A DNA stretch of 64,000 bases from Candidatus Magasanikiibacteriota bacterium (GTDB lineage: Bacteria; Patescibacteriota; Patescibacteriia; Magasanikbacterales; GWA2-37-8), in NCBI GenBank assembly GCA_963802255.1, contig CAWDHY010000001.1, positions 171,842 to 235,841 on the forward strand, given 5' to 3'. This document shows, one piece after another, positions 1,878 to 6,841 of the stretch; position 1 is the stretch's first letter; the number at the start of each line of letters is the position of its first letter. The translations under genes were made by a program, and so were the position numbers. The notes below the pieces were generated by a model, which saw only the letters and a program-made list of their open reading frames with translations, had not been told where the DNA came from and did no database searches.

Positions 1878-3125
1878 GTGAGTTTTTTTGTTTGTATGTC
1901 AGATGTAAAACAAGATTTTAAGAAATTGCTCGAGGACCATTTAATGAATTTCCCGAATGTCGGAGATATTGTTAAAGGCAAAGTAATATCCGTTGATAAA
2001 AATGAAGTGCGTATTGACGTGCAGAATTTAACGACGGCGATTGTCCGTGGCCGTGAGATGTTTTTTGAATCTCGCGAGTATTCCGATTTAAAGCTTGGAG
2101 ACGAAGTGGAGGCAACCGTTATTGATTTGGAAAATGAAAACGGTGAAATGGAACTGTCATTCCGTATCGCCGGCATGCAACGCGTTTGGGATAATATGAA
2201 GAAATGGATGTCTCAGGGCATTACCATAAAGGCGAAAGTATATTCGGCCAATAAAGGTGGTTTGATGGTTCAGGTCGGCGTGTTAAACGGCTTCATGCCG
2301 GTATCACAGCTCAACCCGGATCATTATCCGAGAGTGGCCGGTGGCGATAAAAATCGCATTTTTGAGAAATTACAGGAAATGGTCGGTGAGGATTTGGAAG
2401 TTAAAGTAATAGACGTAAATGAAAAAGAGGAAAAACTGATCGTTTCAGAAAAAGCTGTTTGGGAAGATGCACAAAAAGCCGTACTGGAGGCCTATAAAGT
2501 TGGTGATGTAGTTGACGGAGAAGTCAGCGCTATTACATCATTCGGCGTATTTATCAGGTTTGGTGAAGGATTAGAAGGTCTGGTGCATATCTCTGAAATT
2601 GCCTGGCAAAGGATTGATCACCCGAAAGATATCTTAAAAGTTGGCGATAAAATTCGCGCTCAAATTATTCAGCTTGACCACTCAAAGATATATCTCTCAA
2701 TAAAAAGATTAGTTGATGATCCGTGGAAAAAAGTGAAAGACAAATTTAAGGTCGGCGACACGGTGAAAGGCAAAATTATCAAAGTTGAACCGTTCGGTTT
2801 GATGATTAGCCTTGATAAAGAGATTCACGGTTTAGCGCATATTTCTGAACTTTCCGATGAACCGATTGCCAATATAAATGATAAATTCAAAATTGGGCAG
2901 GAACTTGAAATGGTAGTGGTGTCACTGGAACCGGCTGAGCATCGTTTGGGTTTGCGCATGGCCGGCGTAAAAGGCAAGACCGGGCGGAAAGCCGAAGCGG
3001 CTGCAAAATCTGTTGAGGATGAAAAGAATAATGAAGAGGAAGTTGAAAAGAATTTAGATGAACTGGCTGCGGTTGAGGCCGTTGCTGAAGCCGGACAAGT
3101 TGAAGAGGAAAAGAAAGAGGAATAA
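1878..3125 (+). CDS. rpsA: 30S ribosomal protein S1
   Basis: 415 aa with four S1 (OB-fold) repeats, e.g. GDIVKGKVISVDKNEVRIDV, GDVVDGEVSAITSFGVFIRF, GDTVKGKIIKVEPFGLMISL, and an acidic C-terminal tail. GTG at 1878 sits 4 nt after GGGAGG. An alternative ATG is at 1896 (MSDVKQ). Confidence 0.8.
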   Translation: MSFFVCMSDVKQDFKKLLEDHLMNFPNVGDIVKGKVISVDKNEVRIDVQNLTTAIVRGREMFFESREYSDLKLGDEVEATVIDLENENGEMELSFRIAGMQRVWDNMKKWMSQGITIKAKVYSANKGGLMVQVGVLNGFMPVSQLNPDHYPRVAGGDKNRIFEKLQEMVGEDLEVKVIDVNEKEEKLIVSEKAVWEDAQKAVLEAYKVGDVVDGEVSAITSFGVFIRFGEGLEGLVHISEIAWQRIDHPKDILKVGDKIRAQIIQLDHSKIYLSIKRLVDDPWKKVKDKFKVGDTVKGKIIKVEPFGLMISLDKEIHGLAHISELSDEPIANINDKFKIGQELEMVVVSLEPAEHRLGLRMAGVKGKTGRKAEAAAKSVEDEKNNEEEVEKNLDELAAVEAVAEAGQVEEEKKEE

Positions 3126-3148
3126 AATAGAAAAATTAAACAATAAAT

Positions 3149-3169
3149 CCACCAGTTGGTGGGTTTTTT
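3149..3169 (+). terminator. Rho-independent terminator after rpsA
   Basis: Short hairpin ccacc-agtt-ggtgg followed by tttttt. Confidence 0.45.
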
Positions 3170-3220
3170 GTTATTTGAAATAAACCTGCTATGCTATCCG
3201 TATTAAAGGTATAACCATTT

Positions 3221-3787
3221 ATGACAAACGGACAGCTAGAAACAATGGCTGATGAAGAGCTTGTTTCGCTTTCAGTTGAAAAGAGCGAAATTTTTGGAAT
3301 TTTAATGAGACGCTATCAGGGCCGGCTTTTGTCATACATCCGACGTTTATCCGGATTGCGCAGTGAAGACGCGGAAGATGTTTTGCAGGAATCATATATT
3401 AAGGCCTATCTCAATTTAAATGATTTTGACCGGAAATTAAAATTTTCTTCTTGGCTTTATCGCATTGTTCATAATGAAACGATCAGTGAGTGGCGTAAAC
3501 GAAAAGCCCGCCCGAGCATAATTTTAGACAGTGAAGACTGGCAAAAAATTAAAAGTGGCTCAGATTTGAATAGTGAAATAATGGCAAAGTTTGATAAAGA
3601 GTTGATGAATAAAGCTATTGCACGTCTGCCAAAAAAGTATCGCGAGGTTATCGTTCTTAAATATCTTGAGGAAAGATCATATGAGGAAATGGCTGATATA
3701 TTGCGCAAACCTGCCGGCACTATCGGTACATTGATCAACCGGGCAAAAAAACAATTGAATAAAATATTGAAAAAATATGGATCTTAG
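3221..3787 (+). CDS. RNA polymerase sigma factor, ECF (sigma-70 group 4) family
   Basis: 188 aa. Region-2-like segment (DVLQESYIKAYLNLNDFD, FSSWLYRIVHNETISEWRKR) and a region-4 helix-turn-helix (YREVIVLKYLEERSYEEMADILRKPAGTIGTLINRAKKQL). Confidence 0.8.
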   Translation: MTNGQLETMADEELVSLSVEKSEIFGILMRRYQGRLLSYIRRLSGLRSEDAEDVLQESYIKAYLNLNDFDRKLKFSSWLYRIVHNETISEWRKRKARPSIILDSEDWQKIKSGSDLNSEIMAKFDKELMNKAIARLPKKYREVIVLKYLEERSYEEMADILRKPAGTIGTLINRAKKQLNKILKKYGS

Positions 3788-4553
3788 CAAACAGGTTTTA
3801 GAACAAATTGAGAAGCAAAATATTCATCCGCGTTCGCGTTACGCTGTTTTTTTGAGACGTTCAATATTTTGGGCTTTCACTGCGCTTGCTTTGATGATTG
3901 GCAGTATAGCGGTTTCCATAACAATTTTTTCAATTGCCAATGTGGAATGGGATTTGTGGGCGAGAGCAACAAGTAGCTCCTGGAGATATGTGCTGTTTAT
4001 ATTTCCGTATTTTTGGCTGGTCATCTTTGTTGGTTTCATTTTGTTTGCGCATTACAATCTGCGCCACACAAAATATGGCTATAGATTTACTTTGTCAAAA
4101 GTTATTATCATCTATATTGTATCAACCGTCATATTAGGCGGTACTTTTTTCCGGCTTGGTCTTGGCCACGAAATCGAAGAACTTATTGCCGATTCTGCAC
4201 CTTTTTATCACCATTTACAAGGTGAAAGGATGATGTGGGTAATGCCGGAACAGGGTCTTTTGGGCGGGCGAGTTGAAAATATTGACGGGCCATATAACTT
4301 TATATTAACAGATTTGGATGGTGTAAGGTGGCAAATATCAGTGTCCGGCACTATCGGCGTGGAGTATACGTTTCCCGGTGCAAAAATAAAGATTATCGGT
4401 GAGAAATTTGGAACGAGCAGTTTTCAGGCGGCGGAAATCCGGTCTTGGTGCGGATGCAGCGGATGCAATAAAGAAAGTAATACTGCATGCATGCATGTAA
4501 GCGGAACCTGTCTTGGCGGCTCACTGTGCGGGCAGCAGGGATGCGGTTATTGA
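3777..4553 (+). CDS. polytopic membrane protein with Cys/Gly-rich C-terminal tail (possible anti-sigma or sensor partner of the ECF sigma)
   Basis: 258 aa, overlaps the sigma gene by 11 nt (translational coupling). Three or more hydrophobic helices. C-terminus WCGCSGCNKESNTACMHVSGTCLGGSLCGQQGCGY. The anti-sigma role is inferred from position only. Confidence 0.5.
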   Translation: MDLSKQVLEQIEKQNIHPRSRYAVFLRRSIFWAFTALALMIGSIAVSITIFSIANVEWDLWARATSSSWRYVLFIFPYFWLVIFVGFILFAHYNLRHTKYGYRFTLSKVIIIYIVSTVILGGTFFRLGLGHEIEELIADSAPFYHHLQGERMMWVMPEQGLLGGRVENIDGPYNFILTDLDGVRWQISVSGTIGVEYTFPGAKIKIIGEKFGTSSFQAAEIRSWCGCSGCNKESNTACMHVSGTCLGGSLCGQQGCGY

Positions 4554-4692
4554 AAGAAATATTTTTTTGATGCGTATTAGTTTATGAGCGCTCAAAAAAT
4601 ATTTCGTCACCTCCGGCTTGGCAAGGGTTATGAGCCTAAACTTGTCCGGGGGTGACACAAATTATTAACCGCAGAAAGCGGATAAAAAAATT

Positions 4693-4959
4693 ATGAAACC
4701 ACTTTGGTTTATAGGCGGAATAGCAGTAGCGGCAATGCTGGTTGTCGGTATCGGTTCAGCATTTGCATATCAGGGAAAAGGTGCCAATGTAAATACTGAA
4801 ATTGGCGATACAAAGACACAAACAAAAACCTGCGGATGCGCGCATGGGGCGCAAGCCGGCGGGTGCGGAGCGGCCGGTTGTACTGCAGGTTGTTCGCAAT
4901 GTAGTGGGCAAGGTGTCTGCGGCGACGGTTGTTCCGGAGGATGTAAAGCGGGGCGCTAA
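4693..4959 (+). CDS. small membrane-anchored Cys/Gly-rich protein
   Basis: 88 aa. N-terminal TM/signal segment (MKPLWFIGGIAVAAMLVVGIGSAFA). C-terminal 45 aa has 11 Cys in CG/GC spacing (CGCAHGAQAGGCGAAGCTAGCSQCSGQGVCGDGCSGGCKAGR). The tail resembles that of the upstream 258-aa protein. Confidence 0.45.
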   Translation: MKPLWFIGGIAVAAMLVVGIGSAFAYQGKGANVNTEIGDTKTQTKTCGCAHGAQAGGCGAAGCTAGCSQCSGQGVCGDGCSGGCKAGR

Positions 4960-5002
4960 GCGTTTCGGTCAATAAAAATAAGTCGAAGTAAAACCTTAAA
5001 AA

Positions 5003-5033
5003 AGAACCCCCGTTAAGCCGGGGGTTCTTTTTA
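5003..5033. terminator. Rho-independent terminator (bidirectional, between convergent genes)
   Basis: gaaccccc-gttaagcc-gggggttc followed by ttttt, with an A-run upstream. Confidence 0.6.
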
Positions 5034-5050
5034 TAAAATTAATATTTTTA

Positions 5051-5239
5051 TTACATTTGCCATTCTGTTACGCCGTGCTGGGGTTCATCGTCTTTACGGC
5101 GTTCTTCTTCGGGCGGATAGGGACGCTCTTCAAGCGGTAAAGACGGATAACCGCCTTCGCGTCGTTTTTTTCTTCGTTTTTCATCCTCAATAATATGAAT
5201 TGGCATTTTTGGGTAATCAGCATTTAATTTGGGAGGCAT
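5051..5239 (-). CDS. hypothetical small basic/proline-rich protein
   Basis: 62-aa ORF, co-directional and 11 nt upstream of the LD-carboxypeptidase gene. No recognisable motif. May be spurious. Confidence 0.25.
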   Translation of the reverse strand: MPPKLNADYPKMPIHIIEDEKRRKKRREGGYPSLPLEERPYPPEEERRKDDEPQHGVTEWQM

Positions 5240-5250
5240 ATGATTTTATA

Positions 5251-6261
5251 TTAATCAACAAACGGCCCGGTGAATTCAATTTTTTTGTCCGGATAGATCG
5301 TTGTTTTACCGCCAATGGGCACTAGCATGGTATTTTTTTCCACATTGTGGCCGAAATTTTCCACTGCCAAAATATATAATGGATTGCCTGATTTTTTCCG
5401 GAATGCCATCACGTCACTGAGTAGATATTCAAATACTCGGTCCGGTTTTTCTTCCTGGCTTTGTTCCTTACCAAAAATTTTATTAAATTTTTTAAACCCT
5501 TTTTCCATCTCAGATTTATTAAACCTGCCGATGACCAGAGCCTTGATATGGCGGAATACACCCCGTTCATCAAGAGATATGATAACGCGGTGAAGATCTT
5601 CAATATGGATATCAATATCTTCCGCGAATAAAATATAATCGTCCCAGGTGCGTAGTTTGATATTGTACATGTCGAGCAAGTCGCGGAAGGTCGAGATATT
5701 TCCGCCAATGGCGATTCCCTCAATTTTTTCTTGGGGCGCTCCCGCCGGGCCATGCCAGGCGTAGTTTCCTTCTTTGAAGGAAAAAGAGTTTTTCTTTCCT
5801 TCAACAACGTCAAAAAACAATTGATTATTATCGTTTTCCAAAAGCCCGCAAACATTGGAATAATGAAATGTCAAAAGTTTCAGTTCAAAATATAAATAAT
5901 TTAAGAGGAAAGTTGTATCGGAAAAACCGTTTACGACCGGCCGATTTTTACGAATTTTCATTAAATCTGAATCAGTCAGATGCCGGATGATATCTTCACA
6001 GCCGGTTCCGCCGTAAACCGGTAATAGCCAATTTGCTTCTTTAATTGCCTGGCGAAATTTGCGTAAGCGTTCCGATTCGGATGCAGAAAGATACCGCAAA
6101 TCAAGATAACTTCTTTGCACGTCAAACAGATGGGTATTTAAATAGCGTCCTTTAATTTTTTTTAAGGCCGATTCAAAAGTCTGAATATCCGATTTTTCGA
6201 CCGGGGAGGATGTATGAACCAGATGAATTTTTGATTCAGGCGTTATTTTTTTTGGCAACAT
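5251..6261 (-). CDS. LD-carboxypeptidase (peptidase S66 family, LdcA/MccF-like)
   Basis: 336 aa. Nucleophile motif GFSDTT (S66 consensus G[FY]SD[IT]T) and C-terminal FGH catalytic-His motif (AVENFGHNVE). Confidence 0.6.
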   Translation of the reverse strand: MLPKKITPESKIHLVHTSSPVEKSDIQTFESALKKIKGRYLNTHLFDVQRSYLDLRYLSASESERLRKFRQAIKEANWLLPVYGGTGCEDIIRHLTDSDLMKIRKNRPVVNGFSDTTFLLNYLYFELKLLTFHYSNVCGLLENDNNQLFFDVVEGKKNSFSFKEGNYAWHGPAGAPQEKIEGIAIGGNISTFRDLLDMYNIKLRTWDDYILFAEDIDIHIEDLHRVIISLDERGVFRHIKALVIGRFNKSEMEKGFKKFNKIFGKEQSQEEKPDRVFEYLLSDVMAFRKKSGNPLYILAVENFGHNVEKNTMLVPIGGKTTIYPDKKIEFTGPFVD

Positions 6262-6271
6262 ATATACAGAG

Positions 6272-6841
6272 TTAATCTTTCAAATATTTTGCGACGCCGT
6301 CGTGCCGTCTTTCCTCTCTTTCTCTGGCGCAGGCGTAATCGTGTGCGTCGTTATAATGCATGCCTTTTTTCATCAAATTACGCTCATATAGCTCATGAAT
6401 TAGAACATATTTTCGCTCTTTTGTCAATATGGCGTCATCAAGCCAAATTTCATTTTTCGGCACATAATTATAGATAAGATCGTGCCCACCAAAGACGAAA
6501 TTGAAGTCAAAATATCTGCGCACCAGTTTACCTGAAACCAGAAAAATTTTTAACGCGCCCTTTTTATCTAATAGTTTTAAGTGAACTTTTTTTTGGTCAA
6601 TTCTATCCATTCCACTGCGTAAAATCTCTTTTGCTTTTTCATAATCGTATTTTTTCATTAGCGCTCGTTTTTTGATAAATGTATCCATCAACTCTTTTTT
6701 CTCTTTAATAAATAACTTATCAAACCAGATTTCATTTTTTGGGATATATGGGCAAGTGACATTATCTTCCACGCAGCTAAAATCAAGGTCAATAGTGTTT
6801 CTGATTTTATAACCGTCAACAATTTTAATTTTTTTTGGCAT
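6272..6841 (-). CDS. hypothetical protein with internal tandem duplication
   Basis: 189 aa. Two ~35-aa repeats: YIPKNEIWFDKLFIKEKKELMDTFIKKRALMKK and YVPKNEIWLDDAILTKERKYVLIHELYERNLMKK. Ten nt downstream of the LD-carboxypeptidase gene. Confidence 0.5.
   Translation of the reverse strand: MPKKIKIVDGYKIRNTIDLDFSCVEDNVTCPYIPKNEIWFDKLFIKEKKELMDTFIKKRALMKKYDYEKAKEILRSGMDRIDQKKVHLKLLDKKGALKIFLVSGKLVRRYFDFNFVFGGHDLIYNYVPKNEIWLDDAILTKERKYVLIHELYERNLMKKGMHYNDAHDYACAREREERRHDGVAKYLKD

Follow-up and report, generated by a model that had tools for sequence, protein, structure and literature searches.

A putative three-gene ECF sigma factor module with a Cys-tailed membrane partner and a probably exported Cys-rich peptide in a Candidatus Magasanikiibacteriota bacterium

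The 2021 reclassification of the extracytoplasmic function (ECF) sigma factors (PMC7826278) places the putative anti-sigma factor typically at position +1 of the ECF gene, and its survey of the partners of 157 ECF groups reports a single transmembrane (TM) helix for 82 groups and three such helices for just one. Here, we describe a locus from a 64-kb stretch of a Candidatus Magasanikiibacteriota contig (CAWDHY010000001.1; the whole stretch that was analysed is called “the window”), where an ECF sigma gene is followed by the gene of a 258-residue membrane protein and by a small open reading frame (ORF) of 88 residues, and we compare it with the described systems that are closest to it. Two of these are sigma/anti-sigma pairs: the SigF-NrsF pair of Caulobacter (DUF1109; PMC3511200), where NrsF is a polytopic anti-sigma factor with a 25-residue N-terminus, the periplasmic cysteines of which matter for the response to Cr and Cd, and the SigW-RsiW pair (5wuq), where RsiW, an anti-sigma factor of class I, binds zinc, spans the membrane once and is removed by regulated proteolysis. 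The main features of the locus, all on the plus strand, are listed below; OB stands for oligonucleotide/oligosaccharide-binding and AF2 for AlphaFold2.

3176-3205, plus strand: putative promoter P1, TGAAATAAA-N14-CGTATTA, 16 nt upstream of the sigma start codon
3221-3787, plus strand: ECF sigma gene, 188 residues
3777-4553, plus strand: membrane protein gene, 258 residues, overlapping the sigma gene by 11 nt (ATGGATCTTAG)
3777-3842, plus strand: predicted cytoplasmic N-terminal segment of the membrane protein (residues 1 to about 22), with an amphipathic helix (residues 3-14) and a conserved Pro18
3837-4154, plus strand: three predicted TM helices (residues 21-54, 68-95 and 106-126; Kyte-Doolittle and AF2)
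4257-4448, plus strand: predicted extracytoplasmic, five-stranded OB-fold barrel (residues 161-224), with the family motif F.A.EIR(P/S)W at its end
4449-4550, plus strand: flexible tail, rich in Gly and with seven Cys (residues 225-258), CGCSGC-x7-C-x6-C-x5-C-x4-C
4551-4579, plus strand: putative promoter P2, TGAAAGAAA-N13-CGTATTA, starting on the stop codon of the membrane protein gene, upstream of the small ORF
4693-4959, plus strand: small ORF, 88 residues, after a gap of 139 nt; the precursor consists of a signal-peptide-like N-terminus (residues 1-25), a polar linker and a C-terminal half (residues 47-84) that is rich in Gly and Ala and contains nine Cys

The locus resembles SigF-NrsF in that the second gene of the operon encodes a polytopic protein with about 25 residues before the first TM helix, in that the sigma factor is, in our locus probably, autoregulated from a conserved promoter, and in the presence of conserved extracytoplasmic cysteines, which in NrsF are implicated in Cr/Cd sensing. 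NrsF, however, has six TM helices and no soluble domain, whereas the 258-residue protein is predicted to combine three TM helices with an OB-fold and a tail; NrsF carries two loop cysteines as opposed to a tail of seven, and no matched secreted partner has been described for it. No DUF1109 match has been found with Pfam in the 258-residue protein or in 71 members of its family. With SigW-RsiW, the locus shares the probable organisation of an autoregulated sigma/anti-sigma operon and the same type of -35 (TGAAA) and -10 (CGTA) elements; unlike RsiW, the 258-residue protein is not single-pass and lacks the HxxxCxxC motif.

Other described systems resemble single parts of the locus. In CorE/CorE2 (ECF238; PMC7826278, PMC6851896), a short, CxC-containing, Cys-rich segment senses metals within an ECF pathway, but it is located on the cytoplasmic sigma factor, with no anti-sigma factor involved, whereas the Cys tail of the window is carried by the membrane partner, predicted to face outward, and the sigma factor is free of Cys. 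The periplasmic metal “sponges” SilE and PcoE (PMC5008109) are, as the 88-residue peptide, small, of low complexity, probably disordered, rich in metal ligands and, in the case of the peptide probably, exported, and the peptide, as these proteins, seems to owe its induction to a dedicated regulator of envelope signalling; the metal ligands of SilE and PcoE, however, are His and Met in place of Cys, and both are under two-component control. The bacterial metallothioneins, likewise small, of low complexity, probably disordered and rich in metal ligands, share with the peptide the CxC, CxxC and CxxxC spacing and the Gly/Ala/Ser-rich composition, but the classical ones (SmtA/BmtA) are cytoplasmic, while the 88-residue product has no family-model match and a signal-peptide-like N-terminus. 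CcmE (8ce8_E, Foldseek E = 5e-4) is, as predicted for the 258-residue protein, a membrane-anchored, extracytoplasmic OB-fold with a flexible C-terminal tail that bears ligand residues; it differs in its single anchor helix, in its haem-binding HxxxY tail motif, which is absent from the tail of the 258-residue protein, and in having no link to a sigma factor. Finally, CpxP, Spy and ZraP (LTXXQ) resemble the third genes of related loci that have a Cys-free tail, since they are secreted helical proteins in the regulon of the sensor that they are thought to modulate; they belong to two-component rather than ECF systems, the third-gene proteins have no Pfam or NCBIfam match, and the likeness consists of the motifs S-x-E-x-x-x-x-M, followed by DYxxW.

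The sigma factor and its membrane partner

Judged by its sequence, the first gene encodes a true ECF (group 4) sigma-70 factor: it consists of sigma-2 and sigma-4 domains only (Sigma70_r2, 60.7 bits, 1.2e-16; Sigma70_r4_2, 54.5 bits, 9e-15; Pfam), and it scores 98.7 bits against TIGR02937 (NCBIfam; cutoff 42.9). B. subtilis SigW is both its best PDB relative (5wuq_A, 3.9e-25) and its top NCBIfam match; its scores, 113.2 bits against NF007223 (cutoff 209) and 103.5 bits against TIGR02948 (cutoff 243.1), stay under the SigW equivalog cutoffs, and the sequence is that of a SigW-like factor, not of a SigW orthologue. It contains no Cys.

The 258-residue protein has no match in Pfam or NCBIfam; a search of the PDB with the profile of its close family returns no chain at E <= 10, the profile of 71 diverse members finds nine unrelated membrane-protein noise matches and no anti-sigma chain in the PDB, and no consistent Pfam match occurs across these 71 members. 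A word-indexed search has returned 10 close relatives, all of about 255 residues, one of them named Candidatus Magasanikbacteria, where all seven tail cysteines are conserved. An exhaustive profile search has returned 2,101 representatives (50%-identity clusters) at E <= 1e-3, 670 of them at E <= 1e-30; nearly all family members are 240-260 residues long, and the matches span profile positions 2 to about 224, i.e. everything but the tail. The organism-labelled members come from Patescibacteria or Magasanikbacteria genomes, with a single exception (L034, CAYOXC010000005.1), labelled “uncultured Gammaproteobacteria bacterium”, where the full trio is found at 71%, 48% and 58% identity to the three proteins of the window; this label probably reflects a binning mistake or an error of taxonomy.

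Our literature search has found nothing that describes this membrane-protein family, and nothing relevant on Patescibacteria and anti-sigma factors; the main text of PMC7826278 mentions no groups from Patescibacteria or the candidate phyla radiation. The partner family is undescribed as far as these sources go. The sigma factor itself is ordinary; what appears to be new is the architecture of the anti-sigma factor, together with its matched secreted partner.

The pairing of this family with sigma genes has been followed in 16 retrieved loci, which carry family members at 27-77% identity to the protein of the window: an ECF sigma gene is located directly 5' of the family member, on the same strand, in 16/16 loci, and in 12 of them the pair is overlapping or at most 10 nt apart. 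The pairing persists at 27-39% identity and in unrelated wider neighbourhoods; the close clade is located between rpsA and an S66 peptidase gene, while the neighbours of the distant members are ribosomal protein genes, an ABC transporter with a glycosyltransferase, or radical-SAM, desulfoferrodoxin and methyltransferase genes. Because position +1 after a sigma gene is the standard context of anti-sigma factors, we read the family as anti-sigma factors. The most conserved cytoplasmic element of the family is the N-terminal helix with its Pro motif (consensus of the segment LxKIKxExIKPxPKWxF, with I11 and P18 invariant or nearly so); few parts of the protein are conserved as well as this motif, as would suit a conserved partner in the cytoplasm, and the N-terminal segment is a candidate sigma-binding element. 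On these grounds, the 258-residue protein is most likely the anti-sigma factor of the sigma factor, which it would bind, and at the same time its sensor.

No class I anti-sigma domain (zf-HC2, RskA, RseA_N or similar) has been found in the Pfam, NCBIfam and PDB searches. The gene context is that of class I, i.e. directly downstream of the sigma gene, with the 11-nt overlap in the window; the layout is different, since about 20 residues precede the first of three TM helices, where class I factors have a cytoplasmic helical bundle of about 80 residues and a single TM helix. The original prediction, which had been made from the sequence of the window, is borne out here in several respects: its ORF positions and the 11-nt overlap are reproduced in our ORF list, the Pfam and NCBIfam domains agree with its ECF sigma call, the polytopic nature and the short N-terminus of the 258-residue protein are seen in the three hydrophobic helices of the Kyte-Doolittle analysis and of the AF2 model, and its proposal of a non-canonical sigma/anti-sigma pair is consistent with the adjacency in all 16 loci, the absence of a known anti-sigma domain and the short segment before the first TM helix.

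The positive-inside rule, applied to the sequence, assigns the basic RHTKxGYR loop and the K/R-rich N-terminus to the cytoplasm and a WD-containing loop to the outside, a topology (N-in, C-out) that would leave the OB-fold and the tail facing outward. The AF2 model, built on an alignment of the 71 sequences (pLDDT, i.e. predicted local distance difference test, 84.5; predicted template modelling score 0.75), contains, in this order, the N-terminal helix, the three TM helices, short helices, a five-stranded barrel (residues 161-223; strands 161-169, 174-179, 184-189, 203-210 and 215-223) and a low-confidence tail from residue 225. The block means of the pLDDT lie at 91-96 for most of the barrel, drop to 83 in its loop of residues 190-200, and fall to 59, 46 and 42 in the tail from residue 231, with every residue from 242 below 50. 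In a Foldseek comparison with the PDB, all listed matches are OB-folds, 11 of them with E <= 1e-3 and with target-normalised template modelling scores of about 0.4-0.55; they include RMI2, the LysRS N-domain, the OB rings of the proteasomal Rpt proteins, eIF1A, RPA and the membrane-anchored haem chaperone CcmE. Four of the 71 members scanned with Pfam have weak DUF5666 matches. The extracytoplasmic part of the 258-residue protein is, according to the model, an OB-fold.

The shared promoter motif, the tails and the third gene

P1 and P2 share a motif, TGAAA[GT]AAA-N13/14-CGTAnTA, that occurs exactly twice in the window and in none of its shuffles; since the pattern has been derived from these two sites, this statistic is partly circular. 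The comparison across loci is independent of the derivation of the pattern: a slightly relaxed version has 23 matches in 14 family loci (166.6 kb, both strands), all of them on the coding strand at the positions of P1 or P2, as opposed to no match in 140 kb of unrelated control loci and a shuffle mean of 0.28. The motif at the P1 position is kept in 12 of the 13 other family loci that were scanned, and two loci selected later, L039 and L040, carry both motifs. In L007, the second motif is located about 60 nt past the stop codon of the membrane-protein gene, and the P2 motif is therefore no by-product of the stop codon; in L036, TGTA (TGTAnTA) replaces CGTA at both sites, as would be expected if one sigma factor reads both. 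A promoter of the SigW type consists of TGAAAC (-35), a spacer of 16 nt and CGTA (-10) (PMC5758882), and the sequences of P1 and P2, with an AAC-type -35 and a CGT-type -10 element, are of this type. No further copies have been found in any retrieved locus beyond the positions of the sigma gene and the third gene. As the motif is common to both upstream sites, the sigma gene probably autoregulates through P1 and directly drives the 88-residue gene through P2; with its own sigma-type promoter, the latter gene is probably an output of the regulon.

Just 8-20 nt separate the CGTA element from the annotated sigma start codon in most loci, so that the sigma transcript may have no leader or a very short one; another possibility is that translation really starts at an ATG farther downstream, e.g. 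Met9 at 3245. In the Cys-free locus L009, a 55-residue CxxC...CxxC peptide and a VKOR-DsbA-VKOR cluster for disulfide-bond formation are encoded behind the third gene on its strand (4889-6776); none of these genes has a promoter motif of its own, and they may be members of the regulon by read-through.

The cysteines of the 258-residue protein's tail are residues 225, 227, 230, 238, 245, 251 and 256, and those of the 88-residue product are residues 47, 49, 58, 63, 67, 70, 76, 80 and 84, in a segment (47-84) with CxC, CxxC and CxxxC spacing and no aromatic residues. The two are the only real ORFs of the window with at least five Cys in their last 40 residues, and they are adjacent; this pairing of Cys-dense C-termini exceeds chance, and both tails are kept in relatives. 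The N-terminus of the small product, read by eye as MKP-LWFIGGIAVAAMLVVGIG-SAFA|YQ with an AxA site, suggests that the product is probably a Sec-exported peptide. It is conserved in nine relatives; the product and its family have no match in the Pfam, NCBIfam and PDB searches, and a metagenome scan for its motif GGCGAAGCxAGC has returned two chance matches in GC-rich contigs. Three interpretations of the two tails were tried and rejected: homology between them (tblastn E = 3.1), the shared features being composition and the CGC motif; a C-terminal sorting signal, as there is no TM helix with a basic cluster and the tails are too variable; and an Fe-S cluster, because export looks Sec-type and not Tat-type.

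In order to describe the variation of the tails, we have taken the tail after ...EIR(P/S)W in 212 family members: 44 (about 20%) have at least four Cys, about 21 are Met-rich, five are His-rich and 145 (about 70%) are basic, Pro-rich or Gly-rich. The tails are enriched in Cys (5.9% versus 1.0%) and Met (4.8% versus 2.6%), with a few being His-rich; Cys, Met and His are metal-ligand residues. CxC follows directly after the Trp in 42 members, and the W-C-G-C-x-x-C core is invariant within the Cys-tailed subfamily. A genome scan for E-I-R-x-W-C-G-C-x-x-C has returned 25 loci, of which five are real family members and the rest chance matches with no tblastn support. Given this variability, the Cys tail is a lineage-specific variant of the family.

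The Cys-tailed loci that we have examined (the window, L001, L004, L007, L034, L011, L033, L036, L037 and L010) represent six independent lineages, down to 28% identity, and in every one of them the gene after that of the membrane protein encodes a small, exported, Cys-rich product that has C-[GA]-C as its leading motif. Cys-free members are mostly followed by an exported, Cys-poor protein with a 70-residue helical repeat (...ERHEAMxxAFExxDYxxW...NFxxFxExHxLMxEG...ELGL) and a short tail, and one of them (L038) has no third gene; the helical-repeat proteins have no relevant match in Pfam or NCBIfam, and the repeat profile finds nothing in the PDB below E = 0.2. A Cys-rich third gene is thus seen in 6/6 independent Cys-tailed lineages versus 0/4 Cys-free ones (0-1 Cys; Fisher p of about 0.005, computed by hand). 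The correspondence extends to composition in general: the mean centred cosine between the tails of sensor and third protein is 0.43-0.46, as opposed to 0 for permuted pairs, and none of 20,000 permutations reaches it. The sensors of L039 (Met-rich) and L040 (His-rich) were picked before their neighbourhoods were seen; the tails of their third proteins are rich in Gly/Met/Arg and in His/Asp/Gly, respectively.

These results modify the original prediction with regard to the tails. It had described dense Cys tails with about 9 and 11 Cys, and while the density is real, the counts are 7 and 9; it had called the tails related, which holds for composition and the leading C-G-C and not for homology, as seen above; and its “TM peptide” of 88 residues has a signal-peptide-like N-terminus and is probably exported, or possibly anchored by its N-terminus. 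Two points had been set beforehand as possible refutations, and both have come out in its favour: the trio occurs together in other genomes, and the Cys tail is conserved, inside one subfamily. The very large size of the family, in which the Cys tail is one variant, the OB-fold, the separate promoter of the small gene and the probable export of its product had been missed.

Proposed mechanism and rival explanations

The reading that we put forward is an autoregulated three-gene ECF module, which would combine a membrane anti-sigma factor, the tail of which senses a thiol-binding ligand, with a sigma-induced, secreted buffer peptide with nine Cys; we hold it with evenly divided confidence. The short N-terminal helix of the 258-residue protein, probably with the basic loop between the second and third TM helices, would hold the sigma factor at the membrane, and the sensor would consist of the outward OB-fold and the flexible tail with seven Cys. 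The ligand captured by the tail would bind thiols and would most likely be a soft metal ion, e.g. Cu(I), Zn, Cd or Ag; its capture would shift the arrangement of the OB-fold and the TM helices, or expose the protein to proteolysis, and release the sigma factor. The free sigma factor would then transcribe from P1, its own operon, and from P2, the exported peptide, which, as a metallothionein-like molecule, would buffer the same ligand outside the cell; once the ligand is soaked up, the signal would fall (negative feedback). Of this reading, the evidence covers the pairing of the genes, the fold, the promoter motif common to both sites and the agreement of the tail type with the type of third gene; that the sigma factor is bound, what the ligand is and how release takes place are inferred. 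The composition of the tails may point to a role in metal or thiol stress, and the occurrence of Cys, Met and His variants at the same position favours metal binding over purely redox chemistry.

Several observations weigh against this reading. The cytoplasmic part of this candidate anti-sigma factor, about 20 residues, is far below the size of a class I anti-sigma domain; neither tail has a match to a metal-binding family in Pfam or NCBIfam, and no metal efflux or detoxification genes are conserved nearby in the examined loci. About 70% of the tails in the family are simply basic, Pro-rich or Gly-rich, and the family as a whole cannot, therefore, function in metal sensing. The signal peptide of the 88-residue product has been judged by eye, and a conserved LW(F/Y)xGG in its N-terminus may signal membrane anchoring. 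The sample behind the matching of the tails is 10 independent loci, and control comparisons (protein cores, sigma factor) reach cosines of 0.15-0.26, so that the composition of the genome explains part of the correlation between the tails.

The preference for a metal ligand has a competitor in redox sensing, where oxidants or electrophiles (O2-derived species, HOCl) would oxidise the reduced tail and free the sigma factor, and the peptide with nine Cys would serve as a sacrificial thiol sink, in a host that is presumably anaerobic. Thiol-based anti-sigma switches are known, e.g. RsrA (PMC4960319), and the most enriched residues of the tails, Cys and Met, are also classic targets of oxidants; the His-rich and acidic variants (including L040), however, fit metal binding better, and nine Cys in about 40 Gly/Ala-rich residues, with their CxC, CxxC and CxxxC spacing, are nearer to a metal-thiolate cluster than to a two-Cys switch. 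A divergent desulfoferrodoxin gene in L038 and the VKOR-DsbA-VKOR genes downstream on the same strand in L009 would suit redox sensing, but each is found in one locus, beside a Cys-free member, and we consider redox sensing rather unlikely overall. The tails that do not look like metal ligands are better accommodated by a feedback of the CpxP kind, where the OB-fold would bind the sensor's own tail in cis and the secreted look-alike would compete in trans and reset the sensor, with no need for a small-molecule ligand; in a variant, the loss or titration of the secreted protein would trigger signalling. The matching of the tails does cover such cases (in L008 both tails end in ...LER(D), in L009 both in ...AQ), the true pairing is the best of all 24 permutations within four Cys-free loci, the third gene is the only sigma target seen per examined locus, and OB-folds commonly bind peptides or oligomers. 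The similarity, on the other hand, is compositional and not sequence-specific (E = 3.1), which makes a weak basis for a shared pocket, the composition of the genome accounts for part of it, and no binding groove has been identified in the OB-fold; such a feedback loop also appears rather unlikely to us.

Two further explanations change the role of one of the partners. The 258-residue protein may be a co-transcribed envelope carrier or chaperone of the CcmE kind, with the sigma factor controlled otherwise, as the lack of a detectable anti-sigma domain, the very short cytoplasmic N-terminus and the presence of CcmE, a membrane-anchored OB-fold with a functional flexible tail, among the Foldseek matches could suggest; we find this quite unlikely, since the +1 position in 16/16 loci, usually with overlapping stop and start codons, is a hallmark of anti-sigma factors (PMC7826278), the conservation of the N-terminal helix is unexpected for a purely extracytoplasmic function, and NrsF shows that 25 residues at the N-terminus can suffice (PMC3511200). 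The 88-residue product may, in turn, be the precursor of a modified peptide (ribosomally synthesised and post-translationally modified peptide) or of a bacteriocin, under the control of the sigma module; it is small, Cys-rich, probably exported and under dedicated regulation, and a gene with a C39 peptidase domain is near in one locus (L011), but the 10 Cys-type loci show no conserved genes for modification enzymes, dedicated transporters or immunity, the N-terminus is Sec-like instead of a double-glycine leader, and the equivalent gene elsewhere encodes a helical-repeat protein of 140-300 residues, all of which makes this explanation very unlikely.

The loci may define a general signalling module of the candidate phyla radiation, where a hypervariable “bait” tail on an OB-fold anti-sigma factor would alone, through its Cys, Met, His or basic variants, determine which ligand is sensed, the sigma factor would have a secreted protein with the same kind of tail as its sole local output, and sensor and effector would co-evolve as a matched pair; we offer this wider reading tentatively and lean against it as it stands. 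To our knowledge, the bacteria of the candidate phyla radiation have tiny genomes with very few regulators, and almost nothing is known of how they sense their environment. The family, with at least 2,100 clusters and a place in no domain database, would give them a widespread, dedicated envelope-signalling system, and the combination of three TM helices, an OB-fold and a tail would be a new architecture among the known anti-sigma factors. As the promoter can be read from the sequence, the regulon should be predictable in any genome that carries the module. The matching of the tails suggests that a stress response could be retargeted by changing a short, disordered segment; if the general reading is true, these regulator-poor organisms would possess a modular, re-targetable system of sensor and buffer, or of sensor and decoy.

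The leader of the third gene and the surroundings of the locus

The remaining features of the transcription unit are the following:

3145-3176, plus strand: intrinsic terminator with a 9-bp stem and a T run behind it, belonging to the upstream gene rpsA (S1) (terminator scan)
4586-4656, plus strand: structured 5' leader of the 88-residue gene, with the palindrome GAGCGCTC (4586-4593) and a long hairpin (outer arms 4606-4616 and 4646-4656)
5004-5034, plus strand: terminator-like GC hairpin (GAACCCCCG...CGGGGGTTC) and T run, read from the sequence, which ends the unit

The terminator of rpsA isolates the sigma operon from upstream transcription. The hairpin at 5004-5034 is not among the sites listed by the terminator scanner, and the Rfam matches at this position are terminator-like leaders only; over 3000-5300, at E <= 1, Rfam has returned only terminator-like noise, with no match in the leader of the 88-residue gene. 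This leader is about 110 nt long, and its hairpin (z = -2.85; 24 predicted pairs, four of them with compensatory changes, in the five related loci window, L001, L004, L007 and L034) is limited to the Magasanikbacteria-like clade, the leaders of distant loci being about 40 nt long; it could be a regulatory or stabilising RNA element. A palindrome a few bases past the -10 element of P2 is also present in L001, L004, L007, L008, L011, L037, L039 and L040, with its symmetry kept and its sequence not (GAGCGCTC in the window, GAAC..GTTC in L004 and L007, TGTGATCACA in L008), and it could be a 5'-terminal stem of the mRNA or an operator for a DNA-binding protein.

About 400 nt downstream of the Cys-rich peptide gene of L036 (4009-4596), a polytopic protein of 195 residues with an HExxH motif (HEYAH) resembles an M50 site-2 protease; this gene, seen in one locus only, would matter if intramembrane proteolysis serves to remove the anti-sigma factor. 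Upstream of the trio, L006 carries a reverse-transcriptase (RVT_1) gene between rpsA and the sigma gene (3324-4367), with the pair of sigma and membrane-protein genes intact, and L011 carries one upstream of rpsA (1-574); these genes look like parts of a group II intron or retroelement. Convergent to the 88-residue gene, an ORF of 61-69 residues is found in the window (5051-5239, minus strand), L004 (6243-6428), L007 (5375-5575) and L011 (4697-4906); its product is highly charged, ends in ...(E/K)WQ(M/I) and has no family match. Farther along, a conserved protein of about 190 residues (MPK(K/L)KIVDG(Y/W)KIRNT...), with no Pfam match, is encoded in the window (6272-6841, minus strand), L001 (7245-7823) and L011 (5398-5964), its gene adjoining that of an S66 LD-carboxypeptidase in the window and that of a C39-type peptidase in L011.

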